Counted from the stretch's first letter, positions 1-62,452 are shown. The stretch: DNA of 64,000 nucleotides from Chthoniobacterales bacterium (GCA_038207335.1 JBBQZX010000016.1:32001-96000); one strand, 5' to 3'. Notes: generated from the sequence alone by a model not told the origin. Made by a program: numbers and translations.

Positions 1-3000
1 ACGATCGGAACGCGGCCATTTCCCTCCACATGGAAACGGGCGCCGAGACTGACACCGAGCGGGAAGCCGAAGATGTAGGCCTTCACGTAGCCCGTCAGCT
101 CAAGGTTGAAGATGAAGTAGTCGTTGCCGATCGCGTCCTTCGTCACGATCGACGTGATGTTGAAGTGAACGCCGCCCTCGATGCCGAAGAAGTCGTTTCC
201 GATCTTCAACTTGCCATCGATGGTGACGCTGAAGCTGCCGGTCGAGTCGAGCCAGCCATTCACATGCAGTCCGGCGAAGCCGAAGAGATTCACGCCGGCA
301 TCGAAGTCGAAGCGCCATGAATTGAACGCCGAGACTCGAATGCTGAAGCTCGCGTCGAGTTTCAAAATCTTCAGGATTTCGAGGTGCCCGGCGACCATGA
401 GGTAGAAGCCGTTCGGCACGCCGTCGCGCGTCGCGCCGGTGGTGTTGATTTGCAGGCGGCCCGCGGCCTCGATCGAGAAAACCGCAACGTCGGCTCGCAG
501 GCTCACAGCGACGTCGAGCACGAGACCGCTCGAATAAACCGCGGCCAAACCGTGTGCCTCGAACTCCAGCCCGCCGAGCAGGAATGAGACATCGAACTGA
601 ATCCGAATGCCGTCCGCGCCGATGAAGATCGAGATGCTGCCGGAGCCCTTCGCGAAGCCGAGGAACTCGACGGAGCCATTAATGGAAATGAGCACGCCGG
701 GCTGAATCGTGATGCCGACGAGCGTCTGCGCGCTGCTCGTCGTGTTAAGCTGCAGCATCGCGCCGACCGAGAATTTCAGCCCGACTCCGCCGCCGAAATT
801 CGCGCCGAGGCTGAGCGACAGCGCGGCGACGAGGCCTTGTGAGGTGATGCGGAAACCGCCGCGCACATCGACCTGCCCGAGCGGCCCGATGACCGCCGTC
901 GCCACGACCGTCACTTCGAGCATGTCGGGGCTGAGCGTGAACTCGAATTGCCCGTCGAGGGTGATCGCGTTCGCGATATTGAGCGAGCCGCGCAGCCGCA
1001 GATGCACGCCGGACGGCACGGCGACCATGCCGACGACGAGGTTGTTGTTCGCATCGCGCTGGAACCGTCCGGTCACCGGATCGATGACGAACGTCTGCAC
1101 CGTGCTGTGCGGATTCCCATCGTCGAAGGTGTTGAATTCCACCAGGAATTCGCCGCTGAACCGGACGCCGGGAATGCCGTCCGCAACGCGCACGAGATAG
1201 ACGCGGCCGACGACGCCGGTGTTATCCGCGTCGCCGATGAAGACCGAGAAATTCAGCGTGCCGGATACAGCGCCAAGCACTGGAATCTCACCTCCCACCG
1301 CGCCGGTGACGGTAAACTCGCTCGTCGAACCGACCGACGCCTTGATCTGAATGAAGCCGGTCAGTGTGATGACCTGCGCGATGCGAAGCTCGGCCTGGAT
1401 CGTGAAGACGAGATAGATCGACGGCACAGCGGTCGCGCTCCGCAGGCCGTCGAGTCCGGGCGGGCCCGCGTAAATGTTGATCGATGTCGGATCGCCCGGG
1501 GACAGCAGCGGAATGAAGGACTGCGGCAGGTCGAAGACCTGATCCGCCAGGGTCGTATTGAACATCAGCGTGACCGAGCCGCTGACCTCAAAGATGTCAC
1601 CGACGCCGGGGATTCCGACATTCGCGCCCGCCCCAACGCGCAGGTATCCGGCGATGCCGGGAATCTCGCCCGCCTTCGTGGTGCCATACACGATCTCGAG
1701 CAGACCGGTAACTTTCCCGTAGGTGATCGGTCCCTCCTTGAATTCCGCATCGACGAATACCTCGAAGCGCGTGCTGCTGATCTTCAGGTAGAATAAGCCA
1801 CGCAGGCGGAAGAGCTCTTGGTCAGCGCCCGGCGGCTTGATGACCGCGCTGCCGAAGAGTTCCAGCGTAAAGGTCTGCGGCGCGAGGACGTAGGTGCGTA
1901 CGAGCGGCCCGCCATTCGGCCCGATGCCGGGAAGCTTGATCGTCTCGGTCTTCGCGACGGTCGTCGTGTTGATTTGAAGGGTGCCGCCAACATCGAAGTA
2001 GATGCCGTACTGCTGGAGTACCGTGAGATTGCTTTGCACCGTCGCGACGCCCCAGAACTGCGGCGCCGGGCCTGTCGTCCCGCTGAGATCGAGGATGAAG
2101 CGCGCCGCCGTTGCGCCGATCGCCCCGATTTTATAGACCCGAAGCTCGCCGCTGAAATCGAGCTGCACGACTTTCCGCGCGAGGTCGATTTCGATCGTCG
2201 CCTCGGCCTTCACGCTGATGAGCGGCTCGTCGAGCAGGTCGGCGAGCCGGAGTTCGACGGAGCCGGAAATCTCGATGAAGAACGACTGCGCCTGCGTAAT
2301 AACTTTCACGGTCTGGACGCCCGCCGCGCCCTGTGTGCCGCTCGAATCCTGCCACTGACCCGCGAGGAAGGTGACGGTCAGCGTGCCGGTGTCGAACTGC
2401 CCGCCGAAGCTGTAGCGCCATGTGTTCGTCCCCGTGAGCGCGCCGGGCTGCGTCGGCACGCCGTTGACGACGACGTTCTCGCCGTTCGCGCCGGTCAGCG
2501 TGAACTCCTGACCCGGGTCGGTGATCGAGCCGGCATTGAGCGTATTGGTGCCGGTCGGCGTGAACGTAACGTCGATGTAGTGCTGGCCGTTGAGCGTCTC
2601 GCGGTCCGCGGTCTGGCCCACCATCGGGTTCGAGAGTGACGCGTGACCGACAGCGACGCTGAACACTTCGGAGCCCGCGAGATTCGCGATTCCATCCATG
2701 TCGCGGAAGCTGTTCGCGTTGAAAGTCACGGTGTAGGTGCCTTCGGAGAGCGCTCCGGTGAAGCGGTAGCGCCACGCGTTCGTCCCCTGCCCCGCGATCA
2801 TCACGCGCTCCGGCGCGCCGGTGATCGCGACCGCATTTCCAGCGGCGTCTTTGATCGTGATCTCGTCGCCGTTAATGCTGTTCGCGTCGAGCGTGCCGCC
2901 GGTCGGCGGACGGAACGTCACCTCGACGTAGCCCTGACTGTTGATCAAGTCGCGCCCGATGGCCGCGCCATTCGCCGGGCTGGTAAGCGCCGCCGTGCTG

Positions 3001-6000
3001 CCGGAAACGGTGAAGATTTGATCCGTCGCGACGTTGCCAAACATCGTGTCGCTGAAGCTCCCGCCAACGAAGCGAACCTTCGCCTCGCCCACCGAGAAGT
3101 CGCCGGTGAGGAAGTAGCGATACGTCGTCCCGCCGACCAGCAGCGGCGTGTCGCCGACCGTCACGCCCATCGCGCCGAGGCCTTCGAGCGTGAACTCCGC
3201 ATCCGGGTCGGTGATCGAGCCGGCGTTGATCGTGTTCATCCGCGACGGACTGAAATTCACGTCAATGAAGCTGTGGTTCGCGTAGCTCGACATGACCGAC
3301 GTGCGCGCAGCCGCGGGCGATCCACTCTCCGTCCAGCTCCCGGTCAGATAGTCGAGCGTGACATTTCGCGCATCCGCTGACAGCGACGTATCGGTGACGA
3401 AACGGCCCGTCAGGAAGTAGCGATACGTCTTCAAGCCAGCCGTGTTGCTGACGAGCAGCGGCGCGCGGTCGGGATCGAAACCGATCGAGCCGAGGCCGGG
3501 GCCGGAGAGCGCGAATTCCGCGCCTGCGTCGGTGATACTCGCGTCGTCCGCCGTGCTCTGGAACGCCACGTCGATGTAGTTGCGGCGGTTGATCTGGTTC
3601 AGGTCGATGAAGCCGCCCGGGCCCGGATTCAGCACCGCCGCTGTCGCGCCATCCGCGGTGAATTTGATCGCCGCCGCGACATTGCCGACGCCCGCCGTGA
3701 CCGAGCCGTCTGTTGCGGTCACGTCGGCATTCTTGAAGCCCGCGCCGCTCGCTCCATCGAAGGCCAGCACGTTCACCGTGACCTCACCGGTCTGGAAGCT
3801 CGTGAACGCCGCCGAGGTTTCGTCGGTCGTGAGGAAGTAGCGGAAGCGGTTCGCGCCGCTGTTCGAGATCGCCGCGATCAAGTCGGCCTGCGTCGCCCCG
3901 GTCACCGCGCGCACGGTCTGCACGCCATTCGCATCGATGACGGTCTCGAGCGGCACCGGGACGCCGTGCGTCTGATAGGTGTGACCGTTAGCCGTGACCG
4001 TGATTTCCGCGCCCGAGTCGAGGATCGAAGCGTAGTCGAGCTTCTGACCATTCGGCGCGTTGAAGGTCACATCGACGTAGGGCTTCGTGAACGGCGACGC
4101 GCTGCCGAACGGCGTGAGCGGCGGCAGCGGACGCCCATTGAGCACGTTCACGTCGATGTGCCCGGCCATCGGATCGATCAACGTCGCGGTCGGTTTCACG
4201 TCGCTCACCACGCCGCTGGTCGTCGCCACAGTTGTGAACGTGACTTCGTCGCCGCCCGCGTTTTTGAAGCCGAGCTTCAGCTTGCCTTGGATCGTCAGCA
4301 GCCGGACTTGATCCGGGATGTCGGCGAGGAAGAGCACGGTGACACTGCCCTGCGCGACTTTCGACAGGTCGGCGTAAAGCTTCGCGCTGAGGCTGATTTG
4401 GTCCGCGGCAAAGTTGAGCTTGCCCGCGATGAGGAATTTCCCGTCGGTGCTGAACTTGATCAGAATCTCGCCATTGAAGACTTCCTTCGACGTGTAGATC
4501 GTGAACAGCTTCGCGCCGCCGGTGATGGTGAGCGGCGAGGTGAACGCAGCCTCGAATCCGCTCATGCCGGGATTTGCGCGGATCGCCTGCACCTGCCGCA
4601 CGACCTGCATCTTCACATCGTCGAGCCATTGCTCCGGCGAGACATTCACGCCCGTGCCGAACGCCGGGCCGCGCAGCTCGAGCGGGTCGCTAATCGACGG
4701 CAGCGTTTTGAAGAATTCAACCCCGGCTACAAAGTCGTTGATGGAGAGGCCGGTGTTCGGTTCCAGCAAAATTCCGCCGGGCACCGAAGCGCTGATGAGC
4801 ACGCCGAGCGGACCGAGTTCGGTCAGCGCGAGACGGATCGTGAGCCCGCCGATGCCCGGGAATACAAAGCCGCCCTGGAGCCCGGCGAAGAAGACGCGCT
4901 GCGCGACCGGCGTCACTTCATCGGTCGAGGCGATGATTTGATCGGTCGCGCTGAGTTTCACGATGCCGCCAATGAGCGCCGCGCTGATCTCGCCGCCGAA
5001 GAGCTGGCCACTGATGCTCACGCCGATGCTCGCGATGTCGGTGATCGGGAACTCGCCGCGCAGCAACTTCGCCACGTCGATCTTCACCCCTTCGATCGCG
5101 CCGGCGAAAGTGAGACCCTTGATCCCGTGGATGCCCGTGACACTGGCCGAGAGCGTCAGGACGAATTCGGCCGGATGCTCCTGAATCCCGTTCGGCCAGG
5201 TGATGCCGAGCTCGGTGATGTGGATCGGCAGCCAGCTCGGCCATTTGAAGGTGTCGCCCGTCGCGCCGCCGACGCTGAGCACGACGCCGAAGCCGAGTTC
5301 CGGCCGGAATTTGCCGTTGCCGAGGATCGAGAAATTCCGCGCCTCACCGCCGATGATGAGTCCGCCGATATTCACCTCCGCGCCGACCGCGCCGACGGAG
5401 AGCAGCTTCTCCGTGCCAATCGCGCCGGTGTCGAGCCGCAGATTGCTTGCCGTCAGGGTGAGGACGCCGCCGAGTTCGACGCGCAGCGTATCGACGTCGA
5501 ACTTGAACGAATCGACCTTGCCATCCTTGAAAGTGAGCGTGGCCCGCAGCGCTTCGGTGTCGGGGGAGCCGGGGAGATCCTTGCCGGGCTCCGCGGTGAG
5601 CCGGTCCTTGATGGTGGCGTTGAACGCCTTGCCCGGGAAGAGCGTTGCGCCGCCAGAGGCGAAGAAGATCGAGCCGTTGAAGACGAGCGGGTTTTCGGCG
5701 TCGAAGTTGACTGAGAAATTGGTGACGCCGATGCGGATGTCGTCGAATTCGATGATTCCCTTGAGCCCGATTTTGCCCGGCGTCGGAGCGGTCTGGCCCG
5801 CGGGCGTGGGCATCGGCGTGAGGCCGTTCGGGTCATTTGCGGGCGTGACTCCGCCGAACTGGAGAATGGCCTGGCCGATCGTGAAGCCATTCTGCCGGAC
5901 GACGAGTCCCGGGATGACGCCGGGCGGGCCGGTCGTCTGCACTTTTCCGATCGGGGTCGGGTCGGCTGCCATTTCCGTCTCGCTGGCGTCGTGATTTGAC

Positions 6001-9000
6001 TGAGTCGTCGTGTCGAAAGGACGAATCCGGCCGGCAACATTCAGCGACGGGAAGACGATGTCGGCCGAGTAAACGCGGATCAACTCCTGGTCGCGCCCGC
6101 CCGCCGGATCGTAGGCGATGCGAATGCCTTGCGCGGTCACGGTGACCACATCCGGCACGGTCACATTCAGCGCCGCGACGGAGAAGCTGAACTTCCCGGG
6201 CACGTTGATTTTCACATTCCCGCTGAGCAGCCCGAAGACATCGACGGCCACATCGAGCGCTCCGTGGATGCCAAGCAGGTCCGCCGTGATCGCACTGGAA
6301 CTCTGCTGCGTCGTGCCCGTCGTCGCGCCCGCCGCGGGAGCGCTCCCGCCGAATGACAGCGACGCGCGGTCAGCGCCGATGCCGATCGTCAGCACGAGCA
6401 GCCCGTCTTTGAATCCGACTTTGTCGATGTCGATCGACGGACCTTGCAGCGTGAGCGGGCCGATGTTCAGCGGACCGCCCGCCGTGCTCGTGCCCGTCGC
6501 GTCGAGGGTGAAACGCTCCTGCAGCGGCGCATTCCCCGCGCCGTCGAGCGTCTTGAAGCCCCAGTCGAGATGCGCCGGACCTGCCGTGACGAAATCGACG
6601 AAGACCTCGCCCGGAGTCGAGCCCGTGCCCGCCTTGAACAGGCCAACCGCGTCGCCCGGGGTCGCGTCCGTGAGGTAGTAGCGATACGTCGTCCCCTGAA
6701 TCAGCAGAGGCACGGCACCGACGAGCACCGGGAAGCCGTTCCCATCGACTTTGATCTGCGCGACGCCGGAGCCGGAGAGCTTGAATTCGTTGCCGTTGAT
6801 TGTGCTCGGGTCGATTTTGCTTCCGTCTTTCGAGACAAAAGTCACGTCGATCCACTGCCGCCCGTTGAGTTGCGAGAGTTGCACGGAGCCGCCGCCATTC
6901 GGGTTCGCGAGCTGCGCGGTCGCGGCGGCGACGGTGCCGGGGCTCACGTTGCCGTCCGCATCGGTGAAGGAGAACGGAAGGATCGCCAACTCGATGTCGC
7001 CCGTCGGCAGCGTGCCGGTGTAGGTGTAGCGCCAGGTGTTCGGCTTGCCGGTCGGGTCGGGCTGCGTCGGCGTCTTGCCGATGGTCACGCCCGCGATCGT
7101 TTGGCCGTTTTGTTTCAGCGCAAATTCCGGCGCGTCATCGGTGATCGAAGCAGCTGTCAACGCGGTCGAGCCGAGCTTGAAGAACGTCACGTCGATCGTC
7201 TTGGCTGCGGCATTCAGCGCGGGCGCGGTCAGGAATTTCGAGTAGATCACGAACGCATCCGTCCGCGTGGTATTCATGACGCCGTTCATGTCGGTGTAAG
7301 TGCCCGGCTCAATTTTGACCTCAACACGCCCGGTCTCGCCGAACGACCCCGTGAACGGGAACCGCCACACGTTCGTTGTCCCCTGCCGCGCCGGCGTGCC
7401 GAGCGTGATTCCCGTTGGCGTGACGCCGTTCACTTTCAACGAAATCTCGCCGCCACCGACAGTCGAAGCCTTGATCCCCGCGCCCGTCGGATCGGTCAGC
7501 AACACATCGATGAAGCCATCCAAATTGATCTTCGCGAGGTCGATGAACTGCGTGCCCGCCGTGAAGACTTGCGTCTCGCCAGCGTTCGCAATGTTCAGTT
7601 TGTCCGTCCAAGTTTCCGGGAGGAAAGTGATCTGCACCGCGCCTTCCGGTAGGTCGCCGAGGAACGAGTAGCGCCAGACATTCGTCGTGCCGATGCGCGC
7701 CGGTTTTCCGATCACGGTCACGCTCGCCGGGATCGCGCCGTTCACGCGCAGGATGAATTCCGCGTCGGTGTCCTCGATCGTTTCCGGCTTGAGTTGCGCG
7801 TGGTTCGGATCGTTGAAGAGCACGTCGATGTAGTGCCGGCGATTCAGCGTGGCGCGGTCGGCGAGCACGCCCGCGACGGGATCGAAGAGGTCGGCAGTCA
7901 GCGACTGGACAGAGCCCGGCAGATTCGAGAGCGTGAGCGTCTGGCCGTAAACCGTGACGCCATTCACCGCGAGCGTCTGGAGCTGGAAGCCGTCCGCGCC
8001 GCCGATGGTGAAGATCGCGGTGCCCGTGATCGCAAACGCTTCCTGTCCACTGACGTTGATCTTCAGCCCGGCGGGCGCGCCGTTCGGGATGCCAGTCACC
8101 GCGACGGCGACGACACCGTTCGGCTTCTTGGTGAAGCTGATGCGGCCATCGAGCGAGAAGATGTTGCCGACCTTGAAGCTGAGGTCCCCGGTGAAGATCG
8201 CGACGTCATCAGTGGTCGTGAATTTCGCGAGCGTGATCGGCGAATCTCCCGGCACGCTGATCGACGTGGTCGGCGGAATAATGACCCCCGAGTTATTGAA
8301 ATCGACGGTCGCGAAGCCGGTCACGTCGAGCCCGTCGAGGCCAACGAGCTTCACGGTGCCCTCGGCGTGCAGCGCGTATTTCGTCACGCCGCCGATGTTG
8401 AATTTGATCAAGCCGAGCCGCGCATTGGTCAGCAGGACGCCGGTGGCGTTCGGGTTCTTTGTGCCGTCGGTGAGCGTGTAGGGCCCCTGGCCGAGGAAAA
8501 TCTCGATAGCTGCCGCACCGACTGCGCCGGTGGCATTGGCGAGCCCCGCGGGAGCGGAGCCAAAGCTCAGGCTGCCCTCGATACTCACGAAGTCGCCGAG
8601 CGTGATCTTCAAATCCTGCACGATGACCTGGAAGAAGGGACGCGTGCCGGACTTCACTTCCGTCGCGCTGAATTTCACCGCAACCGTGCGCCCGTTGATG
8701 TCGAGCATCTCATCGACCGCGGTCGGCGAAGTGTTGAAGCGCACGCCGACCGTGCCGCCGATGCTCGCGCCGCCACCCGATAGCGCCACCTCGCCGGTGA
8801 TCGTCCCCGCGATGCCGTCAGCTTTCAGCACGAGCACCGCACCCGCGTTTTTCAGCACCGGCAGGTCGTCCGCGCCGGAACCGGTGAAGCTCAGCCGCGA
8901 CACCGCGATGCGCGTGACTTTGCTGCCGTCGGCGCGCGTCGATTGGTCGAAGAAGAAGTCGCCGCTCAACGTGAATCCGGCGAACGTCGCGGTCGCATCG

Positions 9001-12000
9001 TAAGCCGTGACGCGAATGTAGGGGCCGCCCGGCACGTTGAGCCGCGTGCTAGTGCCGTTGAGCGTGAAAGTCTGATCGACCGGCGTCATCAGCGTGTTGA
9101 TCGCGAAGCCGATTGTGCCGCTGAGATTGAAGTCGGGAATCGTGACCGACGCCTTCACCGAGAAGCTGCCGGCGAGACCGCCCGGCGTGACTACGAGCAC
9201 GCCGTTGCCATCGCTGAGCGTGAAAAGCGGCGCGCCCGCGCTGTCCTTGAATTGCAACCCGATGTTCGTCGCGACGACCGTTACGGTCGCCTGCCCGGCG
9301 GTCGTCTGCTTGCGCTCGAACGCGAAGTTTCCGCTGATCGTCGTGCCGAGCACGGTAAGCGCGATGTCGGTGCCCTCGACGCGGACGAACGGCCCGGCGG
9401 GCAGCGTCAACGTGTTCAGCCCGAGGCCGGTGATCGTGTCCGGCTGCGTGGTCTGTCCGGTGGCCGTGCCGCTGATTCCAAGCAACCCCGCGGCTCCGAG
9501 CCCATTGAGCCCGACGACGGTGAGGCGCTTGCCCGCAGTTACCGCCGACATGTCGGTGAGTTTGATTTTGTCGCCGACGAGCGTCGCGATCGTCGATCCC
9601 GCGGCCGTGTTGATCTTGCCGATTACATCCGCAACGGTCACCGCGCCGGAGAGGTTGACGTTGAAGCTCGTACCGTCCCGGCGCGTGATTTTGAAGTGCG
9701 CGTCGTTGGCCTGCGTCGCGGCGAATCCGGTGACGGTCGGCGCGCTCGAAGCGGTGAGCGCGAGCGAGGCCACGGTCGTATCGATCACGCGGAAACGCAG
9801 GAACGTGCCGAACAATTCCGCGCGCACTTTCGAGCCGAGCCCGCCAGTGCCGAGCGCGGCGTTAAAGTCGGCCACGAGGTTCGCCGCGGTCGTGTTGTCG
9901 GCAGTCGCCGCAGTCGTGACGGTCACCTGTTGCACCGTGCCGCCGAGGTTCAAAGTCACGCTCACGTCGCTCGCGAATTTGCCGTTCGCAGGCGCCGCGA
10001 TCGTCGAGGTGAGCGTCAGTTCGATCGGCAATCCGTCGCCGCCCTTCACGTCTTTCAAGAGCGTCGGAGCCGCGGTCGTGAGCGGGATGTTCACCGCCGC
10101 GTTCGTCGTGTTGATCCGCAGCGAGAAGGTGCCGCTGAATCCGACGTTCGGAATATTTTGCACGCCGACATCCGCGCCGAGTTCACCAGCAACGCCCGCC
10201 GCAGTGATAATGAACGAGCCGTGGCCGTTGCTGACGGTGACGAACTCGGTGGTGCCGTCGCCGAGCCCGAGGTGAACGTTCGACGCCATGATGCGCACGG
10301 TTTGATTCGGCGCGACGCCCACTTTCTCGAACGAGAAATTCCCGCCGAGCGTCTGACCCGCGACGTTCATCGTAACGTTCGTGCCGCTGACTTTCACGTA
10401 GTTGCCGCCGGGGACGCTGATCGTGAATTCGTTCAGCGCGGAGCCGGTGATGACGCCCGCGACGCTCGGCGACAGCAGCCCGAACGAAGCAGCGGTGAGC
10501 GAGCCGTTCAGCGCGGTGACCGCAAACGCCGTCGCGCCGGTCGTGGTGTCGGTGAGCTTGATCGCCTCGCCTTCGAGCGTCGCGATCGTCGTCCCGGCGG
10601 CGGCGTTGATTTTGTCGATCACGTCTCCGACCGTGAGCGCGCCGACGAGGTTGACATTGAAGCTCGTGTTGTCGCGGCGCGTGATTTTGAAGTGCGGCCC
10701 GCTTGATCCGACCGAAATCCCGCTGCCGCCGCGCAGGTCGCTAAGGAGCACGCTGGAATTCACCGCGCCGACCGTGAAGGTCTGCGTCAGCGTCGTTGCA
10801 GGCAGGGTCGAGTCGGTATTGATGCTCACGCCGAAGCTGCCGGAGAAAGTAACACCCGGCACGTTCAGTTCGACCGTCGCGCTGAAGCTGCCCGCGATCA
10901 CGGTTTGGCCGCCCGCGAGTTTTTTCACGACCAAGCCGCCGCGGCCGCGCGACACTTTCACGAAGTCCGTCATGCCGTCGCCGAGTCGCAGCGCGGCGTT
11001 CGCGATGGCGATGGTCATGATGTTCACCGGCGCGGCGAGTGTGCCGATGTTCTGCTTCGCGAACGAGAAGTCGCCGCTGAGCTGCTGGCCCGCGATGTTC
11101 ACGGTGATGCCGGTCGCATCGACGCGCAGATAAGGCCCGGCGGGCAGCGCGAGGGTTTGCGTCTGGCCTGCGATCGTGAACCGCTCGTTCACCACGCTCG
11201 TCGTGTTGTTCAGCGAAAGCGTGAGCGTGCCGGTGAAGAGCGGCGTGTTCGCGGGATTGCCGTCCACGTCGATCGTGACGGCGCCGCCCACGGTGCCCGC
11301 GATACCGCCCGCGCTCGCGGGAATCGCTGGCGTCGTCGCGGTCGCGGCAACGGCGGCGATGGCCGGGCGCACGACGAAGAGCAGCGAGCCGCCGGTCAGC
11401 GCGAGGAAGTCCGTGGCGCCGTTGCTGAATTTCAGGCTGACGTTGCTCGCGGCGATGCGGATCGTTTTCGCCGTCGGCGAAAGTGTCACCTGCTCAAGGC
11501 TGAAGTTCCCGGTGATGTCCTGGCCCGCGATGTTCAGCGTCGCGGGAGCATTCGCGCTGCCGATTTCCACGCGGACAAACGGCCCGGCGGCCAGCGCGAG
11601 CGTGACAACCTGGCCGCTGCCGAGCGTGAGGGATTGGTTCACCGCGACGTTCGTGTTGTTGACCGCGAACGAGACATCGCCCGAGAAGCTAAAGCCCGGG
11701 ATATTCTGAACGGTGACATGCACCGCGAGCTGGCCCGCGATGCCCTGCGGCGTCACGACGAACGAACCGGTGTCGCCCGGGTTTTGCGTGACCGTGACGT
11801 ATTCCGTCGTGCCGTCGCCGAGGTGGATTTGCAGGTTCGCGACCGCGATGCGGATGATCTTTTGCGCGGGCGCTTTCGTCACCTGCTCGAACCCGAAGTC
11901 AGCCTGCAGCGTCTGGCCCGCGATGGTCAGCTTGACGGCCGTGCCGGTGATTTTCAGGTACGGCCCGCCGGGCAGCGTGAAGGTCACAGGCGGCACAGTC

Positions 12001-33000: not shown

Positions 33001-36000
33001 ACCGAGACAGTGAGCTCGCCCGCAAAACCCGCGGGCGTGATGAGGAAATCGCCGCTGCCCGTCGCGGTCAGAATCGCAGGCGGACCGCCGAGACTCAGCA
33101 CGACATTCGCCGCCGCGACGCGCACGATCTTCGCCGCGCCGATCGTCTGCTGCTCGAAAGTGAAGTCGCCACGCAGCGTTTGGCCCCCGACTGCGAGCGC
33201 GAGATTCGTGCCGGTGAATTGCACGAACGGCCCGCCATCCACAATAAACGTCACGGTGCGCGAACCGACAGCAAAGCTCGCGCTGACCGGCGTTGCGCCG
33301 GTATTGATGAGCAAGCTCACGTCGCCGCTGAAGCTCACGCCCGGCACTTTCAGCGCAACCGACGCGGTGATGTTTCCGGCGAGCGCAGTGCTATTGATGA
33401 GCAGCGCGCCGTGGATATTGGTGACGCTCACGAGGTCGCCGCCGAGTTGCACCGAACCATTCGTCACCGCGACGCTCACGACTTTCACCGCGCCGCTCGT
33501 CGCCTGCTCGAACGCGAAGTCACCCGCGATGCTGACACCCTGAAAAGTAAGCCGCGCGTTCAACGCCTCGACACGCACATACGGCCCGGCAGGCACCGCG
33601 AGGCTCACGACTTTTTCTCCGACCGCGAACGTCTCGCTGACTGCCACCGCCGTGCTGTTCACCGCGAGCGCGAAGTCGCCGGAAAAGACTCCACCCGGCG
33701 GCGTGATCGTTACCGTGCCGCTCACGCGTCCCGCGAGCCCGGCGGCGGTGATGACGTAAAATCCGACGCCGTTCCGCACCGTTGCGATCGGCGTTGAACC
33801 GGCGGTGAGATCGATGCTCACATCGGTCGCCGCAACGCGCACGAATTTCTCGCCGCCCGTCGTCGAGAGCGCCTGCTCGAACGCGTAATTGCCGCTGATC
33901 GTCTGCCCCGCGATCGTGAGCGTCGCCGGATGCGTCGCATCGGTTTGCGTCAGCTCGACGCGGCGATACGGACCCGCGGGCACATCGACGGAAACCTGCT
34001 CGCTTCCGACCGCGAAGTTCGCTTTCACCGTTGCGGAGGTCGAGTTGATCGCCACTGCGAAATGGCCGGTCAGCGTGACGTTTGGAATGTTCGCCGTAAC
34101 ATCCCCGCTGAACCGCCCGGCGACACCCGCGGGCGATAGCAGCAACGCGCCCGAGCCGTTCGTGACCGAGAGAAAATCGGTCGCGCCGTCGCCGAGGCCG
34201 AGCGAGACGTTCGTCGCCGCGATGCGGATGTCGCCCGCCGCGCCGCCGGTCACTTTGGAAAAGGCGAAGTTGCCTTTCAACGACTGGCCCGCGAACGCGA
34301 GCTCACCGTTGAGCACCGAGAAATTCGTGACCGTATCGACGGTCGGGAATGCCAGCGTGATGCCGGGGTCGTTGTTGTCGCCGGGAATCGCGAGCGTCTC
34401 GCCGATGATCGTGCCGGTCGTGTTGACGATCACGGTCGCCCGCCCCGCGATGGTCACGCCATTGATCCCGAGGAATTGCACGAGCCCGGTCGCGCTCAAC
34501 GCGTAGCCGCCGCCGACGCGGATGAGGCCGACGCGCGCATTGCTGACCAGCACTCCGCTCGCCGTAGGATTCAGTTCGCCGCTCGGGAGACGCGCCGGCC
34601 CTTGGCCCAAAAAGACGAGCAAGCCCGCACCCGCAAATGTGCTGCGTCCGCCGCTTTGCACGAAGTTCACACTGCCCTCGATCGTGACGAAGTTGCCGAT
34701 GTTCAGCACGAGATTCTCGGCGAAGAACCCAAAGAACGGCGCACCGGGCGCGCCGGCTTCCAACGGCCCAAAAACGATTGCAATGTCGCGGCCATTCAGC
34801 GTGAGGCTTTCGTTGATTGCGGTCGTGAAGGTGTTGATTCGGAAGCCCGCGCGTCCGCTCACGGTCGCGCCGCCCGCCGCCACCGCGAGGTCGCCGCTGA
34901 GGATTCCCGCGATGCCGCCGGTCTGCACAAGGAACGCGCCCTCGGCATTCACGATCCCATTTCCGCTCACCGTGATTGCGCCGTTGGCCACGGCAAACCG
35001 CGTGGTCTTGGTCCCGTCCGGTTGCACGCTTTGATCAAAATAGAAGTCGCCGTTGAGCGCCACGCTGCCGAGTTGCGCGTTGAGACCGATCACCGCGACG
35101 CGGACGAACGGCCCGGCGGGCAGGTCGAGCGAAATGCTGCCCGCGCCAACCGCAATGCTTTCGTTCACCGCCAGCGCGGAGGTGTTCACCTCGACGCGCA
35201 CATTCGCCGTGATCGGATCGATGCCCGGAATCGTGATCGCCGCGCTCGCGCTGAGGCTGCCCGCCACGCCCGCGCCACCGATGCGGAACGCGCCAGTCGC
35301 GCCGGTGACATCGAGGAAAGTCGTGCCGGGCACGCCGATTTTGAACGACGCGCCGTTCAGCGCGATGCGAACGCCGCCCACAGCGAGATCGGTTTCGATC
35401 CCGAAATCACCGCTGAAGGATTGTCCGAGAATGTCGACCGTGACGGTCGGCACCGCCGGGCGGAAGCGGACGAACTGGCCAGCGGGGATATTGAAGGGGA
35501 TGCTCGCGGGCACACCGGGCAGGCTACCGGAAAGCGTGAGCGTGTCGGTGATCGCGAGGCCGATCGTGTTAAGTTCGACCTTGAATGCACCGGTGAAGCT
35601 GACGTTCGGAATGGCGACCGAGACGCTGCCGCTGAATTCGCCCGCGATGCCGCCCGCCGCGACGAGGAAATTCGCGGATGCGCCGTCGAGCCGGATGAGC
35701 CCGTCGCCGAGCGAAACGGAGGCGTTGCTCACGCTGACGAGCAGCCGCGGCGATGCGGCCGTGGTGCGGACGATGGAAAAGTCACCGGTCAAAGTAGCGC
35801 CCGGCAACGTCGCCGAGATACCGCTGCCTGTGACGCGCAGGTAGGGACCGGCGGGCAGGCTCAACGTGACCACCGACCCGCCGACCACAAAGCTCTCGCT
35901 GACCGCCACGGACGAGTCGTTGATCTGAACTTCGAGCGCGCCGCCGATCGAAACGCCAGGGATATTTACCGCGACTGAACCAGCGAAACTGCCCGCGAAT

Positions 36001-39000
36001 CCGGTCGAAGTGTCTTCCAGCACGAGCGCACCGCTTGCGCCGCTGACCGTGACGATTCCGCCGCCGAGTGAAAGTCCGGCATTCGCGACGACCAACCTCG
36101 TGAGCGATCCACCAGCGGCTTTCGCGACGCGCTCGAAAGCGAAATCGCCGGTGATGCTCTGTCCGGCGACGGTGAGCGCGACGCCCGTCGCCGCAACGCG
36201 CACATACGGCCCTGCAGGCAGGTTAAGCGCGATGCTTTCGCCGCCGAGGACAAATGCCTCGTTCACCGCCGCGCTCGTCGTGTTGATGCTCAAGCCAAAC
36301 GTGCCGGTGAGCGACGCATCCGGCAGCGTGATCGCCACGTCCGCCGCGAGCGACGCCGCCACGCCCGCCGCGCGGACGATGATCGAGCCGCGCCCGTTCG
36401 TTACATTCACGAACGGCGAACCCGCTGCGCCGAGCTTGAGCGTCACCGCGATCGCCGCAATGCGCGTGACTGTAGCACCCGCGCTGTCTTTCACCTGCTC
36501 GACGAAGAACGTGCCGCCGAGCGCCTGCCCTGCGATGGTCAGCGTCGCCGGGGCGAGTTCGCCGATTGCCACACGGAAATACGGCCCGGAAGGAAGAGTG
36601 AGCGCCGGCGCGACCTCGTTCACCGCGACCGCGGTGGTATTGATTTGCAGCGCGACCGCCCCGTCGAATGCCACGCCCGGCACTTCCATTTGCGCTCGCA
36701 CCGACAAGCGCCCAGCGACCCCGGCGTTCGTCAGCAGCAGCGCGCCGCTGCCTTCCGAGAGTGAAACGAAATTCTTCGTCCCATCGCCGAACGCCAGCGA
36801 GACGTTGCTGGCCGTTACCTTCACCGCGTCGCCGGTCCCCAGCGTTCCTTTTGCAAAAGTAAAATCGCCTTTCAGCGTCTGCCCGCCGATCGAAAGCGCC
36901 AGACTCTTCGCCTCGAATTGCGTAAATCCCGCCACCGCCGTCTCCACCGCGCCACTGAATTTCACGAGCACTTCGCGCCCCCCGGTGCCGATCGTCAGCA
37001 CCTCATCCACCGCCGCTCCTGTCGTGTTCACTCGCACCAGCGCCGTTCCGCTGAGCGTCACTCCGCTGACCCCGACCACCTCGATGGTGCCCGTGGCCAT
37101 CAGCGCGTAGGTCGCGCCGATCTTGACAAGACCCACCGTGGCATCGCGCAACAGGATGCCCTGCGCGAGCGGGTTGAGGTCTCCGTTGGGAAGTCGCGGG
37201 GGTCCGCGACCGAGGAACAACTCGAGCCCGTCGCCCGCGAAAGTCTGCTTCGCCCCGGTGCCGCTGAAAGCGATGTTGCCTTGAATCGCAATGAAGTCGC
37301 CGATGTTCAGCGTCAGATTCTCCGCATAAAACGAGAACAGGTTCGTCTCGCCGTCATCGAAACGGATCGTCAGCGTGCGACCGCCGACGGTGATCGTTTC
37401 CTCGACCGACAAGCCGCTCTTGTTGATGCGGAAGCCGCCATTCGCGCTGCCGATTGAGGTGGAAAGCGCGCCGTTCGCAAAGCCCGCGAGGCCACCGGTC
37501 GCCGCGCCGCTCGGCGGCAGCAGCACGAATGCACCCTCGCCATTCACGATGCTATTCCCCGCCGCCGTGATGCTGAGATCGGCGATCGCGAGCCGCGTGA
37601 TTTTCGCGCCGCCGGGCCGAGTCGTCTGGTCGAACGCGAAATTTCCGGTGAGCGTGCTTCCCGCGATCGTGAGCGTTACCGCGGTCAATTCGACGCGCGC
37701 AAACGGTCCGCCGGGAAGGACGAGATCGTGCGGCGCGGCGATGCTTTCGTCCACGGCGGCGGCGCGCGTGTTGATTTGGAGGTGCGCGTTTGCGGTGGAA
37801 TTGAACGTCCCCCCGGGGATGTTCACCGCTGCCGTGACCGCGAAGTCCGCGGCGACGCCAGTCGCATCGACGAGCACGGTGCCGGTTCCGTTCGTCACGT
37901 TGACGAACGTGCTGCCGCCGTCCGCGAGCGCGAGAGTGACGCCGCTCAGCGCGACTCTTACCGTTTTGCTCCCGCCGCTGGTCGTGAATTGCTCGATCGT
38001 GAACGCGCCGCCAATCGTCGCATTTTGCACCCCGAGCGTCGCGGTGCCGGTCAGCCGGGCAAATGGCGTCGCGACCGTCGTGTCGAGCGCGAGGCCAAAC
38101 GTGCCACCGAAACTCACGCCCGGAAGCGCCGCGTCGAGCACGGCGCCGGTGACATTTGCAGCGACGCCAGCGGCGCTCAGCGTGAGGGTAGCCGACGGCG
38201 CGCGCGCGGTAATGAACGTGCTCGCGCCGTCGCCAAAGCTCAGCGACAGCCCGGTAACCGCGATCGAGACGGTGTCTGCGACTTTGGTGAAAGTGAAATC
38301 TCCCGCGAGCCGCTGACCCGCCACGACGATGCTCGCATCGTGAGCTGCAACACGCAGGAACGGACCGGCGGGCACGTCGAGCGTCAGCGTCGAGCCGCCG
38401 ACTTCAATGCTGTCGCTCACCGGAGTGGCGAGAGTGCTGATTTCCGCGCTCGCGGTTGCAGCAAGCGAGACACCGGGCAGCGTCGCCGCGACCGTGCCGC
38501 TGATACGGCCCGCAAAACCGGCGGTTTCAAAAAGGAAGAAGCCTTCACCACCAGTGAGGCTGACGAGGTCGGTGCCGCCGCTAGTCACGAATTTCAAGGT
38601 CACCCCGCTGGCTGCGAGCCGCACGACCGACAAGCCGTCCGAGGTGCGCGAGGTTTTCTCAAAAGCAAAGCTGCCGCTAATCAACTGCGTCGAGCCAGCC
38701 GCCGTGATCGTGACATCGCCGGTCGCGGCGAACCGCACATACGGCCCCGCAGGCACAACCAGCGTCCCGCCGGTCGCAAACGTCTCGGTGATCGCAGCCG
38801 CGGTGTTATTTAAGAGCAGGTCGAAAACCGCAGGCGTCACGCCAGGGCCCGCCGATGGAACGCTCACCGCACCAGACGCGATGCTCACTCCCCCGCTCAA
38901 CCGACCCGCAATCCCCGCGCTCCGCACGATGAGCGCGCCACTGCCGCCCGCCATCGTGACGACCGCGGGCGACCCGAGCGTCGCGCCGATTCCAGTCGCG

Positions 39001-42000
39001 GAGATTTTAACAACCTGCTCGCCGCCGCCAGTCGTCGTGCGCTCGAGCCGGAAGTTGCCCGTGAGCGTTTGGCCGAGCACCGTGAGCGTCGCGGGATTGC
39101 CGATCACCGTGAGATTCGCCCCCGCGATGGCGACGGTGAAGTTGCCCGCGAACGACGCGCCGGGCACATCGGGTTTCAGGGTGCCCGTCGCGCTGCCGGT
39201 CACGCCGGTGTCGGTGATCGCGAGGCTGCCCGCGCCGCCGATGACTTCCGCGAGAGCCGGAGCGCCGAGCGTGAGGTGGACGTTGCTCGCAGAGACCGCA
39301 AGCGCCGGAGCAGTGCCCTGCGTGAAATTGAAATCGCCGCCGACATCGAAGCCCGCAACGCCGAACACGAGCCCGGCACCCGAAACGCTCGAAGCGCCCG
39401 TCGCGAGATTCAGCGCGACCGTCGCCGGGCCGACCGTCACCGCCCGCTGCACGGTCGATGCGGACGTGTTCTTCTGGATCACAACCGCCCCCGCGACCGT
39501 GGCATTCGGCACTCCCACGAGCGCGGCGCTGCCCGAGGCGCTGAACGCGTAACTTTGATCCGCCAAAATCACGAGCCCGAACTGCGCGTCGCTCACGCGA
39601 ATGCCGACGTCGTCCGCTGTCCCCGGCCCGCGTTTGTCGCCGACAAACGCCGCGACATTCGACGCGCCGACGAGAACCTCCGCGCCGTTCACCGCGACCA
39701 CGAAATTGCCAGTGAGGTCCGCAACCGGTGTGGCCAGTGTCAGCGTACCGCCGAGCGCAAAGCTTGTGTCCTGCGCGAAGTTCACCGGCACCGTCGCCGC
39801 ACCGACCGTGAGCGTCTGGTTCACCGCGCCTGAGTTATTCGAGAGGAGCGAAAGCGTTCCAGTAAAGTTGAGCCCGGTCACGCCGACGATGCTCGCCGTG
39901 CCGGACAAGTCGAGCGAGTAGGTACCGTCGGTGAAGAGCACGAGCCCGAGCTTCCCGGAATCGAGTTTCACGCCTTTGCCCGCGGTCCCGGCGAGCAACG
40001 ACACGCCGGTCAGCGCGAGATACGCGTAGCCATTCTCGCCACCCGCCGCCGGAGCGATCCCGAAGGAACCCGTCCCAACTGTCGTGGTGAGCGCAGCGGT
40101 CAGAGGCGCACCGCCGGCTAGGCCGTCCACGGTATAAAAGATGAGGCTGATGACCGTATCGAGGTCCGGTCGGGTCGTCGCGCTGAGTGTCGAGAGCAGT
40201 GGGCTCACGCGAGCGTAAATCTCCTGGCCCAAATCCACCGGGCTGATGAAACCATATTGAAGCAATTTCAACCCGCCGACGACCGTGCTGAGTTGCAGGT
40301 TGGTTGAAATCGAACTCGCGACCGGACGCACGCCGGTGAGTGCCTCGATGGTGCGCTGCTGCGCGTAGAGGTTATTAGTAAGGCCGGTGTGATCGACCGA
40401 GACACCCGCATCGATATGGCTGATCGCCGTCAGGACAATCTTGCCGCTCGCCAGACGTGCGGAGTCGCCGATGAACTGCCCAATCGACGACTCTGTCGGC
40501 ACCGTCCCGTCCCCTTCCGGTCCGCTCGGGTTGCTGCCGGCTTCGGCGAACCAATGGGTCGTCGATCCCGGCAGGTTCCCGACATATTGACTAAATGGAA
40601 GAATCTCATTTTTTCGCCCGAGGTTCGCTTGGAAACCCGTCTCGGCGATGACGCGGTTCTCCGTTTCGATCTCGTCACCGTAAATGACGGTGGTCGTTCC
40701 AAGCACGCGATCCACGAAAGCGTTCCGGTCGGTGCCGCCATTCAAGTCTTTAACGAGCGTGTTCTCAAATCCCCCGTTCGCAATCGTGAGCAACTCGAAT
40801 GTGCCATCATTGTCGAGATCGACAAAGGCATAAGTCGCGAGCAAATCCTTGAAACTCTCGACATAGCGGCCTATGAACCACGCTTGAGCATTCGCACCTT
40901 GCGCATCGAGTTGCGCTTTCGTCGTCGTCGAGCCGTCTGGATTCGTGATGGACTTGAGTCCGCTCGCAACGAGCTTATACGCCTCATTGATGGCGCGACC
41001 CAAAACGCGGGTGGATGCTTTATCGCTGAAATCATTTTGCAGCAATGAAAGCGTCCCGGCTGTACCCTGATTCGGCGCTGCGGATTCGACAAAGTTGAAA
41101 ACCTTCGGTAGCGTCTTGCCCGTCCCATAGGCTGCGCCATAAGCCGCACTCTCGATATAAGCACGGGCGATCAGGCCGCCGGTGCTGTGGGTCACGAAAT
41201 CGACGGCGGGCAGGACCGCCCCGGTCAGCGCGGACCAAGCCGAAGATGCTTTGTCCAGCCAATAACCAAGGTAATCGACGCCTGTCTCATAAACGGAGTC
41301 AGTGATGCCAGTCACGGTGACGTTGCTCAGATTTCCGTCAATCACGCCATCCTGCGGGGCGACCGGCAGACGCCAATCCCAGTTAGCAACGAACAAATCA
41401 ACGCCGGGAGTATAGCCCGCATTGATTAAAGACTGCTCCAAATTTGAATAGGTGTTCGTTAGCGGCTCAAGCACCAATTTTTCCGGCGCGAGGCCGCGAT
41501 TCAGCAGCCACTCCTCCACCCCGGCGGGCGTGTCGTCCGCGAAAAAACTGCCCGCAAAACCGGGGATGAAAATGACCGGACGATTAATTGTCGTGGCCGA
41601 ATGCGCGACGACCGTGAGGGTCAATTTGTGCGTCGCAGGATCATACGTGGGGCGGAAGTAGAGGCCGTTTCCGATCACCAGTCCGGCGTTATTGTCGAAG
41701 CTGCCAGACGCCGTTTCGAACGTCACGATGTCGAATTTCTGGCCGACTTGCGGTGAGAATCCGTTGATCAAAGTGACCTGCAAAGTGCCGCCAAATTCAA
41801 CCGCCCCCGTGACGTTGATTTGGTCGTATCCATTGTCGATCGGCGTGCCGGGTCCGGGAGTCAATCCGCCGATTTGGATCACCGCCGTGCCCGAGCGAGC
41901 GAACGTGAAATTGCCGGTGACGTTTTGGATGCCGGGGGAATTTCCGGGGCTCACGGTACCGCGATTGACGACGTCGCCGACGATCGTTCCGCTGCCCGAA

Positions 42001-42818: not shown

Positions 42819-42843
42819 GCTTTTTTGAAGTCTCGGGAACCGG

Positions 42844-42872
42844 ATAAAAGCGTCGCATCAAGGCTCTGTCAA
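42844..42872 (-). promoter_or_regulatory. Putative sigma70 promoter of the giant gene
   Basis: Minus strand TTGACA (42872-42867), 17-nt spacer, TTTTAT (42849-42844; 4/6 match to TATAAT), 25 nt before the GTG, at the edge of an AT-rich divergent intergenic region. Confidence 0.45.
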
Positions 42873-43322
42873 CCGACTCTCTGAAAATTTTTTGGGAGGT
42901 TTGCGGGTTGGACAAAGCATTGAATTTCGAGTCAAGAATGCAGCTAGATTGGCTCGAGGTCGGCTGTAGAATTCCGGGAATTGATGTTCATCAAGCGAGA
43001 ATCTCATTTGCGTATCCAATAATCGATATACTTAGTGCCTTCTTGATGCTCATTTTTAACAAACCACGCAATGTTCGATCGCGACCCCTTCGTGATCGAA
43101 CGCAGTCCAACACGAATAAAGGCACCCGAGGGATTTGCTTGCATATCGCCTTACCGATAAATCTTTTTCACGATACTGCGCCGCTCTTTTTGTGATTGCA
43201 TTTAAAGGAAGCTCGGCTCGGTTGAAAAGTGAGGTGGCAATGCGCCCATCTCGCAGAGATGGTGCGCTCGTGCTAAACGAAATAGTTTGCCTTTTATATT
43301 TCACATTGTAACTCAGTCGCCC

Positions 43323-44153
43323 ATGCACACCAAACACCATCATGCAGCCCTCTTTTTCGCCACCGCAGCCCTTCTTGCCTCCGGGCTTACCGAGGCCGGG
43401 GCGCAGGTCGTCAAGACCATCAACTCCCTACCAGCGCGCATCCTCAAGCCCGGCCATTACGCTTTAAAAAAGAACCTCGTTCTCACAAAGACCGCCACTG
43501 CGGCCATCTCTATTGAGGCCGACGACGTCTCCATCGATCTCGGCGGATTCCTCATCACGAATACCCTTCCGGCCGGCACTGATGTCACCGGCATCTACGC
43601 CCAGTCGCACGGTGGCCTCGCGGTCTCACACGGCACCGTCCGCGGCTTCGACACCGGCGTGCGGCTCAATGGCAACCAAGCCGCCGTCACTGGCGTTGCG
43701 GTCGAGAACCTCCGTGTGGAAAAGAGCGGCGCCACGGGCATCCAGCTCCTCGGCCCCATCGGCTCGGCGAAAAACTGCGTCATCACGAACACTGGCACCC
43801 CCGCCTCCTACAACGCGATGAGCCTCGTCCTCGACCTCGGCTTCGGCACCATCATCGGCAACGACATCATCGGCACCCAAGCCACCCCCGGCCAGCAGGC
43901 CGTCGGTATCCAGTGCGGCTTGCAGGCCGGAGTCATTGAAAACAACCGCGTCCTCAACGATCAGTCCACGCGCGGCACCACCGGCATGTTTCTCGCCTTC
44001 TCGGCCAGCTACCTCGTCGAAAACAACCGCGTCACCGGCTTCGCCACCGGCATCAACTTCACCAACACCGGCGCGCCCAAGTATCGCAACAACTTCGTCA
44101 CCGACTGCACCATCCCCTACTCCGGCGGCACCGACTCCGGAAATAACAAGTAG
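43323..44153 (+). CDS. Secreted right-handed beta-helix repeat protein (276 aa)
   Basis: Signal peptide MHTKHHHAALFFATAALLASGLTEAGA|Q; PGHYALKKNL...AISIEADDVSIDLGGF...HGTVRGFDTGVRL; repeated (I/V)ENNRV turns. Confidence 0.85.
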   Translation: MHTKHHHAALFFATAALLASGLTEAGAQVVKTINSLPARILKPGHYALKKNLVLTKTATAAISIEADDVSIDLGGFLITNTLPAGTDVTGIYAQSHGGLAVSHGTVRGFDTGVRLNGNQAAVTGVAVENLRVEKSGATGIQLLGPIGSAKNCVITNTGTPASYNAMSLVLDLGFGTIIGNDIIGTQATPGQQAVGIQCGLQAGVIENNRVLNDQSTRGTTGMFLAFSASYLVENNRVTGFATGINFTNTGAPKYRNNFVTDCTIPYSGGTDSGNNK

Positions 44154-47660: not shown

Positions 47661-47661
47661 A

Positions 47662-53409: not shown

Positions 53410-53559
53410 GAGGGAATCTGCGGTGCGAGTGGGGAAACAGCGTCGAAGGACACCGTGGCGAGACTCTCCCGCAATCGTCCGATTTTGCAAGGAATCCCAA
53501 GCAGGCATGAAACAGGAGTGGTTTGCTTTCGACGCCGGATTCGTCCTTCATCGCTGTCC

Positions 53560-62270: not shown

Positions 62271-62452
62271 AAGACTACCAAGGGTAAGCCGCCGGGCCGT
62301 AAAGCTGACGGCCTTAGCACCATAGTGACCGCGCTGCCGACCGCCCATCAAACTAAAGTCACAAAATAGCGCCGGCTTTTCGTCGGGCGACGCAGGCTTG
62401 AACTGCCGCCGACGGGGTTGCTCTTTTTGCAAAAGCTCCACACTCTCCGCTC

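Follow-up and report, generated by a model that had tools for sequence, protein, structure and literature searches.

A giant, putatively exported bacterial repeat protein with a predicted continuous amphipathic beta-sheet that resembles the belt of apoB-100

The DNA analysed here is a stretch of 64,000 nucleotides (hereafter the window) from a Chthoniobacterales bacterium (GCA_038207335.1, JBBQZX010000016.1; contig C16:32001-96000), which carries on its minus strand a very long open reading frame (ORF) that starts with GTG, covers 14,272 codons and is still open at the window edge (Table 1). Following the frame into the contig revealed that the whole gene spans C16:1619-74818 (-), 73.2 kb, with its stop codon at 1616-1618, and encodes a protein of 24,400 amino acids without internal stop. 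The stop-to-stop frame comprises 24,413 codons, the second-longest frame of the genome has 4,502, and this one gene makes up approximately 1.4% of the 5.17-Mb, 53-contig genome, whose completeness is 94.74%. G, A, T, V, L and S are abundant in the protein, which contains little Tyr (0.9%) and Trp (0.2%) and is practically free of Cys. Here we describe its architecture, in which an LCAT-like hydrolase is followed by a long array of 123-residue repeats that is predicted to form one continuous amphipathic beta-sheet, and we weigh what such a sheet might do.

Self-BLAST of chopped segments of the protein revealed a repeat period of about 120-125 residues. An iterated hidden Markov model (HMM) then located 71 copies between residues 950 and 11,577, of which 64 are near-complete, covering 8,408 of the 10,628 residues. 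This agrees with the first-pass annotation of the window, which had described about 32 kb of nearly helix-free repeats with alternating hydrophobic and polar strands: strand-type hydrophobic alternation was well above that of shuffled sequences (z = 12.0 and 6.9 for the two halves of the array), and helical periodicity was below it. The recurring motifs that had been picked out at that stage are specific to the array, since G[ND]F.[FIL][EDQT] occurs 40 times and G.[FLV].[LVI].[IVL]N 34 times within it, and neither occurs elsewhere in the protein. In the repeat profile, one face of the strands is built from F, L, V and I (F91 84%, L116 74%, V50 73%) and the other from S, T, A and N with conserved Arg and Glu (A19 88%, N44 87%, R72/R106 58%). 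Glycines on the hydrophobic face are paired across strands with large residues, and the turns of the profile show no basic or aromatic girdle. The repeat is not represented in Pfam or NCBIfam, its neighbours in the ESM Atlas are all unnamed 'hypothetical protein' clusters (scores 0.93-0.95), and within this genome it is confined to the giant ORF. Similar strands had also been reported beyond the array, a claim that held in part: over window positions 1-2290 only three divergent copies were found (independent E-values 6e-8 to 2e-5), and over 4300-6500 the periodicity is beta-like but the repeat itself is not significant (best independent E-value 0.038).

We modelled four consecutive repeats with AlphaFold2 (AF2), using as input residues 5480-5968 together with ten other non-overlapping four-repeat windows and 53 homologous fragments. 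The best model had a predicted local distance difference test score (pLDDT) of 96.0 and a predicted template modelling score (pTM) of 0.85, and all five models had a pLDDT of at least 92.4. The 489 residues form 32 strands and no helix, arranged as an unbroken antiparallel meander. Each modelled repeat contributes eight strands, of 13, 14, 12, 7, 7, 13, 14 and 16 residues, that is, six strands of 12-16 residues and a 7+7 hairpin, and every connection, including those at the repeat borders, is 2-5 residues long. A separate two-repeat model agreed with this arrangement (pLDDT 94.9, pTM 0.85). Because the turns are tight throughout, each strand must pair with its neighbours in sequence, so the sheet runs on across repeat borders, which excludes both a string of closed domains and a closed eight-stranded barrel per repeat. 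The array is thus predicted to be one continuous, two-faced antiparallel sheet of approximately 570 strands without discrete domains; the ribbon would be about 4-5 nm wide and, if each of 6-8 strands in a unit adds roughly 0.5 nm, about 0.2-0.29 um long. The suggestion that the repeats form one long sheet rather than a string of Ig beads was therefore upheld in the prediction, and the folds that had been named as its counter-examples, closed sandwiches and a beta-helix, were not seen in the models of consecutive repeats.

At the level of the AF2 models, an Ig-bead string, a parallel beta-helix and a closed barrel of 16-24 strands were all ruled out. An outer-membrane barrel was also rejected, given the very low Tyr and Trp content, the uniformly short loops and the presence of the repeat in monoderm Actinomycetota. 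Could the continuous sheet itself be a prediction artefact, with the real repeats folding as discrete small domains? AF2 is the sole source of the topology, and a mean-field covariation analysis of 469 repeat copies (effective number of sequences 448) recovered only a short hairpin ladder (49-66, 53-63, 55-62); the other covariation signal was gap-driven noise, which neither confirms nor contradicts the remaining pairings. Against an artefact, the confidence scores of both models are very high, units connected by only 2-5 residues have no linkers between them, and the sequence by itself already shows the strand periodicity. We regard discrete domains as very improbable.

Next to known structures, the two-repeat model gave no Foldseek match at E <= 1e-3, the engineered single-layer sheet of OspA and porins ranking first. 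It could be superimposed on the walls of 22-strand TonB-dependent transporters, with root-mean-square deviations (rmsd) of 4.1 Å over 181 residues for FyuA, 4.3 Å over 173 for OprC, 4.4 Å over 172 for FauA and 4.5 Å over 151 for BtuB, and on the engineered OspA sheet at 3.6 Å over 136 residues, whereas smaller barrels gave 8-13 Å. These fits to flat or gently curved walls argue for an open ribbon as opposed to a taco-shaped groove, and the local geometry of the array, as modelled, is that of an open, gently curved single-layer sheet.

This geometry bears directly on the original functional proposal, namely that the array is a groove of the repeating beta-groove (RBG) kind, like AsmA, TamB and VPS13, which would carry to the cell the lipids that the enzyme frees from a target membrane. 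A very long continuous amphipathic sheet, a lipase/acyltransferase at one end of it and a fusion of the two that is conserved in 15 of 80 loci are all features that such a conduit could have. According to the available text of PMC7613979, an RBG unit consists of five meandering strands and one further element, a helix or loop that crosses back as the sixth, at least 150 residues in all, with a hydrophobic concave face. By that description the unit found here does not belong, as it has 123 residues and eight strands joined by tight turns, and lacks both the sixth crossover element and a helix. Over all 24,400 residues, no match to AsmA, AsmA_2, TamB/DUF490, Chorein_N or related Pfam families was obtained at E <= 0.01. 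None of the RBG, TamB, VPS13, ATG2 or LptA groove chains was among the fold matches listed for either model, and from groove-related systems only the TamA and LptD barrels appeared there. The walls that the two-repeat model fits at about 4 Å are flat or gently curved and not U-shaped in cross-section. Moreover, the enzyme is N-terminal and approximately 12,800 residues of other sequence follow the array, so the sheet does not span the protein from end to end. Neither the likeness to AsmA, TamB and VPS13 nor the groove analogy was supported, and we consider an RBG-like conduit highly improbable.

The four-repeat model gave a different picture at longer range. Transmembrane barrels again came first in Foldseek and VIA-align, but with rmsd values of 12-30 Å and template modelling scores of about 0.2. 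In a second-look search against 989 chains, the best match was human apolipoprotein B-100 (apoB-100; 9coo_A, residues 2821-3363), with a Z-score of 15.7 and an rmsd of 9.2 Å over 331 aligned residues (model residues 32-489, 6% identity); the matches that followed had Z-scores of at most 12.2 and rmsd values of 16-26 Å. As far as the text of PMC11839476 available to us goes, the belt of apoB-100 is a continuous amphipathic beta-sheet of about 61 nm x 4 nm, with 120 strands of 11 residues on average and nine interstrand inserts; it comes after a globular N-terminal domain and, in low-density lipoprotein, rests on the lipid.

A ribbon of this length might instead coil into a closed hollow tubule, an 'antiparallel beta-helix' of the type proposed for Omnitrophota giants. 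In the accessible part of West-Roberts et al. (bioRxiv 10.1101/2023.11.21.568195), giant Omnitrophota proteins are described with regions of about 1,500 amino acids predicted as hollow, wound antiparallel tubules, which bear regularly spaced exterior helices or hairpins. Besides this precedent in giant proteins, our two-repeat model is locally as curved as the wall of a 22-strand barrel. The four-repeat model, however, departs from barrel curvature, with an rmsd of 14-30 Å to barrels of 22-24 strands, exterior helices are absent from the AF2 model, and RHS/YD shells were not among the top matches, teneurin (8fia_A) being found at a probability of 0.09. We think coiling into a tubule quite unlikely.

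The domain directly ahead of the array had been called an LCAT-like hydrolase at first pass, and we examined whether this name is appropriate. It is the feature noted at window position 41585. The motifs IPGFAGS, NWDWR, THSTGG, GDGTVP and VDHTGL are all present. A single-sequence phmmer search of the domain against PDB gave no meaningful match, and a profile of 24 members of the hydrolase family matched LCAT (4xx1, E 1.6e-6), LipA of B. subtilis (E about 2e-4) and lysosomal phospholipase A2 (LPLA2, E 1.4e-3). Against Pfam LCAT (PF02450) the query scored 12.4 bits (cut-off 21), and the sub-threshold Pfam matches around the nucleophile elbow were DUF7379, Palm_thioest, PGAP1, Lipase_2 and LCAT; of 21 homologs scanned, three passed the LCAT cut-off, at 28.3-35.1 bits. 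The putative catalytic triad consists of Ser545 (window 41184-41186), Asp770 (40509-40511) and His810 (40389-40391), which we take to be catalytic from alignment with the family. Across 81 sequences (the query and the 80 loci described below), 76 have the Ser of THSTGG, and conservation is equally high for the Asp of GDGTVP and for the His of VDHTGL (76 each). All misses of Asp and His are alignment gaps, and those of Ser comprise one gap and four substitutions (three Gly, one Asp); 80 of the 81 sequences have the Arg of DWR. The name therefore appears fair, with a presumed activity, and judged by its sequence the domain is a divergent bacterial branch of the LCAT family.

An exhaustive search found hydrolase relatives in 546 cluster representatives at E <= 1e-3, 305 of them at E <= 1e-30. 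The closest named ones come from metagenome-assembled genomes (MAGs) labelled Spartobacteria (81% identity), Verrucomicrobiae (75%) and Chthoniobacteraceae (63-65%). The domain usually sits near the N-terminus, in proteins of up to 7,861 amino acids, and 43 of 150 family members carry a LEPR-like motif within their first 400 residues. RTX, Calx-beta, FG-GAP, F5/8C, subtilase and EF-hand domains are among its other partners.

Co-occurrence of hydrolase and repeat was scored over the best 80 genome loci that encode a relative of the hydrolase. The repeat was found within 10 kb in 16 of them and in the same ORF in 15. Loci with the repeat are mostly from Verrucomicrobiota, including Opitutaceae and Puniceicoccaceae, together with one Planctomycetaceae and one Rhodospirillaceae MAG. 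Four of five genomes that were checked have repeat-bearing open frames of 24,170, 27,799, 19,645 and 15,179 amino acids, and the fifth is fragmented. One of these related genomes (G004, C69) has a second repeat-bearing frame, of 6,012 amino acids, beside the one of 27,799. The hydrolase was present in 1 of 240 repeat-bearing proteins, a figure that is uninformative on co-occurrence because all 240 are fragments of at most 2,445 amino acids.

Fragments with the repeat are labelled Verrucomicrobiota, Planctomycetota, Actinomycetota, Rokubacteria, Methylomirabilota, Bacteroidota and Alphaproteobacteria, one from Chthoniobacteraceae being 74% identical to the repeats described here. Together with the named relatives of the hydrolase, this makes Verrucomicrobiota the probable phylum of the organism. 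Since the family includes monoderm Actinomycetota, the repeat does not depend on an outer membrane. In the genomes of the phylum that were sampled, repeat frames range from 3,160 to 20,466 codons. Source names of the relatives are 'hypothetical', 'beta strand repeat-containing protein' and 'large repetitive protein', and many of the relatives carry FG-GAP/VCBS. Numerous 'complete' repeat proteins from long contigs terminate in tails that are rich in Arg and Pro and look out of frame (P0272-P0390). These are probably pieces of giant genes split by frameshifts in long-read assemblies, and such splitting would mean that public protein sets under-report the true size of the repeat family. In the literature searched we found no description of the repeat or of the architecture, and none of the papers listed dealt, by title or abstract, with a beta-belt in bacteria; the supplements of the giant-gene preprint may list relatives.

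The remaining features of the window are collected in Table 1. The GNSPG module that precedes the hydrolase has the same position in homolog P0127 by alignment. Domains inserted between units of the array had been anticipated at first pass, and several, FG-GAP among them, are indeed present. Behind the array, residues at about 11,580-12,100 read by eye as Ig-like modules. The approximately 12,800 residues that follow the array are mostly non-repetitive by BLAST, have beta-like periodicity (z 7.3) and hold four weak copies of the 123-residue repeat in total. Blocks of RTX repeats lie in the last 10,128 residues (HemolysinCabind at 5.1e-49, 1.6e-13 and 3.8e-11), and PKD-like repeats are found near the C-terminus. 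Modules of a LysM-like pattern, Y-x-V-x-x-GDT-L-x-x-I/V-A, recur at residues of about 18,000-20,600, beyond the window (within contig C16:1619-32002), and are reported by no Pfam family. The G+C content falls to 0.58 at window positions 40001-44000, compared with about 0.65 elsewhere; this interval spans the 5' end of the gene, with its low-complexity P/T/S/A spacer, and the intergenic region upstream.

Table 1. Features of the window; positions are window coordinates and residues are numbered along the giant protein.
Feature	Position	Strand	Basis
Part of the giant ORF within the window, residues 1-14,272	3..42818	-	ORF call, continued in contig
LEPR-XLL N-terminal motif, residues 12-33, LEPRVLL at 17-23	42720..42785	-	NCBIfam NF012209, 26.8 bits (cut-off 17)
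Beta module with GNSPG motif, residues ~240-409, after P/T/S/A-rich spacer	41592..42101	-	no Pfam match even at E 10
LCAT-family alpha/beta hydrolase (by sequence), residues ~410-900	40119..41591	-	family profile, conserved motifs
Array of 71 copies of the 123-residue repeat, residues 950-11,577	8088..39971	-	iterated HMM, AF2
Four modelled repeats, residues 5480-5968	24915..26381	-	AF2; inner two (25281-26015) modelled separately
FG-GAP / FG-GAP_3 beta-propeller insert, 1,155 residues	17595..21059	-	Pfam FG-GAP_3 1.3e-48, FG-GAP 4.8e-35
Insert with Flagellin_IN motif, 217 residues, 9152-9368	14715..15365	-	29.3 bits (cut-off 22.7)
Insert of 406 residues, 9826-10231, no family assigned	12126..13343	-	gap in repeat HMM matches
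Insert of 128 residues, 10971-11098, no family assigned	9525..9908	-	gap in repeat HMM matches
Post-array part within the window, residues 11,578-14,272, beta-rich, largely non-repetitive	3..8087	-	periodicity, BLAST
Three divergent repeat copies, residues 13721-13835, 13866-13976 and 14088-14130	429..1658	-	HMM
Two adjacent PQQ_2 / BamB-like beta-propeller ORFs	46104-47660, 47599-48918	+	1.8e-24, 3.7e-22
LamG and ricin-lectin protein	50077-53508	-	domain matches
2,169-residue ORF with TSP3, DUF6923 and FG-GAP repeats	55932-62441	-	domain matches
EpsA-like regulator ORF	62453-63616	+	weak C-terminal match to XrtB/PEP-CTERM-associated EpsA, 39.9 bits (170); sigma-70 region 4 / LuxR

Regarding export, inspection of the N-terminal sequence showed no classical signal peptide. 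For type I secretion, two models were tried on the whole genome, and the best hits were 41.7 bits for HlyD (TIGR01843; cut-off 208.65 bits) and 245.6 bits for PrtD (TIGR01842; cut-off 510.15 bits). The neighbouring genes suggest a surface or exopolymer setting, and the EpsA-like ORF hints at an exosortase-type surface-protein neighbourhood. In the adjacent 2,169-residue ORF, a PEP-CTERM motif lies near the N-terminus, at residues 218-242 (Pfam 27.8, cut-off 20.7; TIGR02595 20.5, cut-off 16), and this ORF may be two genes read as one or may have a mis-set start.

What, then, covers the hydrophobic face of the sheet? With roughly 45 large side chains per repeat, this face cannot be free in water, so something must cover it. 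We favour, with a probability of about 0.4, a model in which the ribbon is an extracellular amphipathic belt lying on a hydrophobic surface. In such a model, the ribbon of the exported giant protein would lay its hydrophobic face on a hydrophobic phase, be it the lipid of a membrane or droplet, a wax or an oil, where it would keep the lipase/acyltransferase and the binding inserts in place. In architecture the protein would parallel apoB-100, a belt on a surface, as opposed to an enclosed groove of the RBG type. We prefer the belt because a meander made only of hairpins has no means of building a second layer in cis, the AF2 sheet stays in a single layer, the closest match among solved structures is a belt bound to lipid, and the repeat family occurs in both monoderm and diderm bacteria. 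The integrity of the gene, the two distinct faces of the sheet, the fits of the two-repeat model to open, low-curvature walls, the LCAT-family triad and the fusion of hydrolase and repeat in 15 of 80 loci also count in its support.

Several observations weigh against the belt. Its mechanism relies on a predicted structure. The strong conservation of residues on the hydrophobic face (F91 84%) would equally suit packing of protein against protein, as would the rarity of Tyr and Trp and turns that have no basic or aromatic girdle. The match to apoB-100 may reflect only a generic long open meander: apoB-100 was not among the matches listed in a wide search of the same four-repeat model, nor among those listed by Foldseek for that model, nor among those listed by VIA-align or Foldseek for the two-repeat model. 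The neighbouring genes give no lipid context. No repeat lies within 10 kb in 64 of the 80 hydrolase loci, and only 9 of 150 cluster representatives of the hydrolase family carry it, so that the hydrolase is not obligatorily linked to the repeat. Finally, the repeat is patchy even within the phylum, being present in 7 of 121 evenly drawn genomes, this one included.

The strongest alternative to the belt is that the array forms the stalk of a giant adhesin. Here the ribbon would serve only as an extender, its face buried by a second protein sheet, from another copy or by folding back, in a two-layer cross-beta-like fibre, and the enzyme, FG-GAP, RTX and PKD-like domains would be cargo. The layout indeed recalls giant surface proteins with RTX, PKD-like and FG-GAP domains; the hydrolase has relatives on other large proteins with RTX, Calx-beta, FG-GAP and F5/8C domains; and names such as 'large repetitive protein' and 'beta strand repeat-containing protein' among the relatives fit as well. 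Aromatic and aliphatic residues on the hydrophobic face are conserved in a position-specific manner, and this, like the low Tyr and Trp and the lack of an interfacial aromatic or basic girdle, favours the stalk. However, AF2 kept the four repeats as an extended single sheet without fold-back (pTM 0.85), the all-hairpin meander has no arch connection for a switch of layer, the nearest solved structure is a lipid-bound single-layer belt, and HlyD and PrtD remained below cut-off in a genome that is 94.7% complete. A stalk of this kind is a real possibility, if on balance a doubtful one.

Going beyond the belt as such, the protein could be a bacterial apoB-like device, a quarter-micron single-chain belt equipped with an LCAT-family enzyme, that wraps or coats lipid from membranes or droplets of prey, host or environment, or from vesicles of the cell itself. 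This would yield lipid particles belted by protein, or a fibre coated with lipid, its open hydrophobic face serving as a lipid track and not as a tunnel. This extended proposal is speculative, and we hold it to be unlikely. If the hydrophobic face does meet lipid, a lipoprotein belt would for the first time have a counterpart in bacteria, and the array would lend itself naturally as a scaffold to belt lipid or hydrophobic surfaces; should the face pair with protein instead, the array would amount to a cross-beta fibre made of a single chain. The structure would be new either way.

Compared with known systems, the hydrolase shares with LCAT and lysosomal phospholipase A2 the (Y/W)DWR motif, the HS-x-G nucleophile elbow, the GDGTV aspartate and a C-terminal histidine, and differs in falling below the Pfam cut-off and in being usually N-terminal in large exported proteins. 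TonB-dependent barrels, the closest fits to the two-repeat model next to OspA, close on themselves, whereas four repeats of the array do not. Transmembrane barrels carry aromatic girdles, in contrast to the 0.9% Tyr and 0.2% Trp found here, and the OspA sheet is polar on both faces. Like VPS13, ATG2, TamB and YhdP of the RBG/AsmA group, the array consists of rod-like all-beta repeats with one hydrophobic and one hydrophilic sheet face; apart from the different unit, the bacterial protein is presumably exported and about ten times longer, and its local shape, as modelled, is not that of a U.

Giant exported repeat proteins are already known, and their extenders are usually Ig-like beads or parallel beta-helices. 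With giant RTX and LEPR-XLL ('LEPR-8K') proteins, the protein described here has in common the LEPR-XLL motif, C-terminal RTX and PKD-like repeats, FG-GAP modules, a huge size and a patchy distribution. It differs from them in its extender, which would be a continuous meander ribbon instead of Ig-like beads or a parallel beta-helix, and in that neither of the two type I secretion models tried, HlyD and PrtD, scores above cut-off in its genome. The likeness to apoB-100 is of another sort: in both, a globular, lipid-related N-terminal part is followed by a belt, and the belt is a continuous amphipathic antiparallel sheet about 4 nm wide with domains inserted between strands, which for the bacterial protein is a feature of the AF2 model only. 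The bacterial array consists of regular 123-residue repeats with roughly 570 strands compared with 120, bears no sequence relation to apoB-100, and has no vitellogenin-type N-terminal domain by Pfam in residues 1-1500. As modelled, it is an analogue of apoB-100 and not a member of the large lipid transfer proteins, and the protein as a whole would belong to the giant exported repeat proteins, set apart by a repeat fold that is undescribed and by a structural similarity to the belt of apoB-100 that was not expected.

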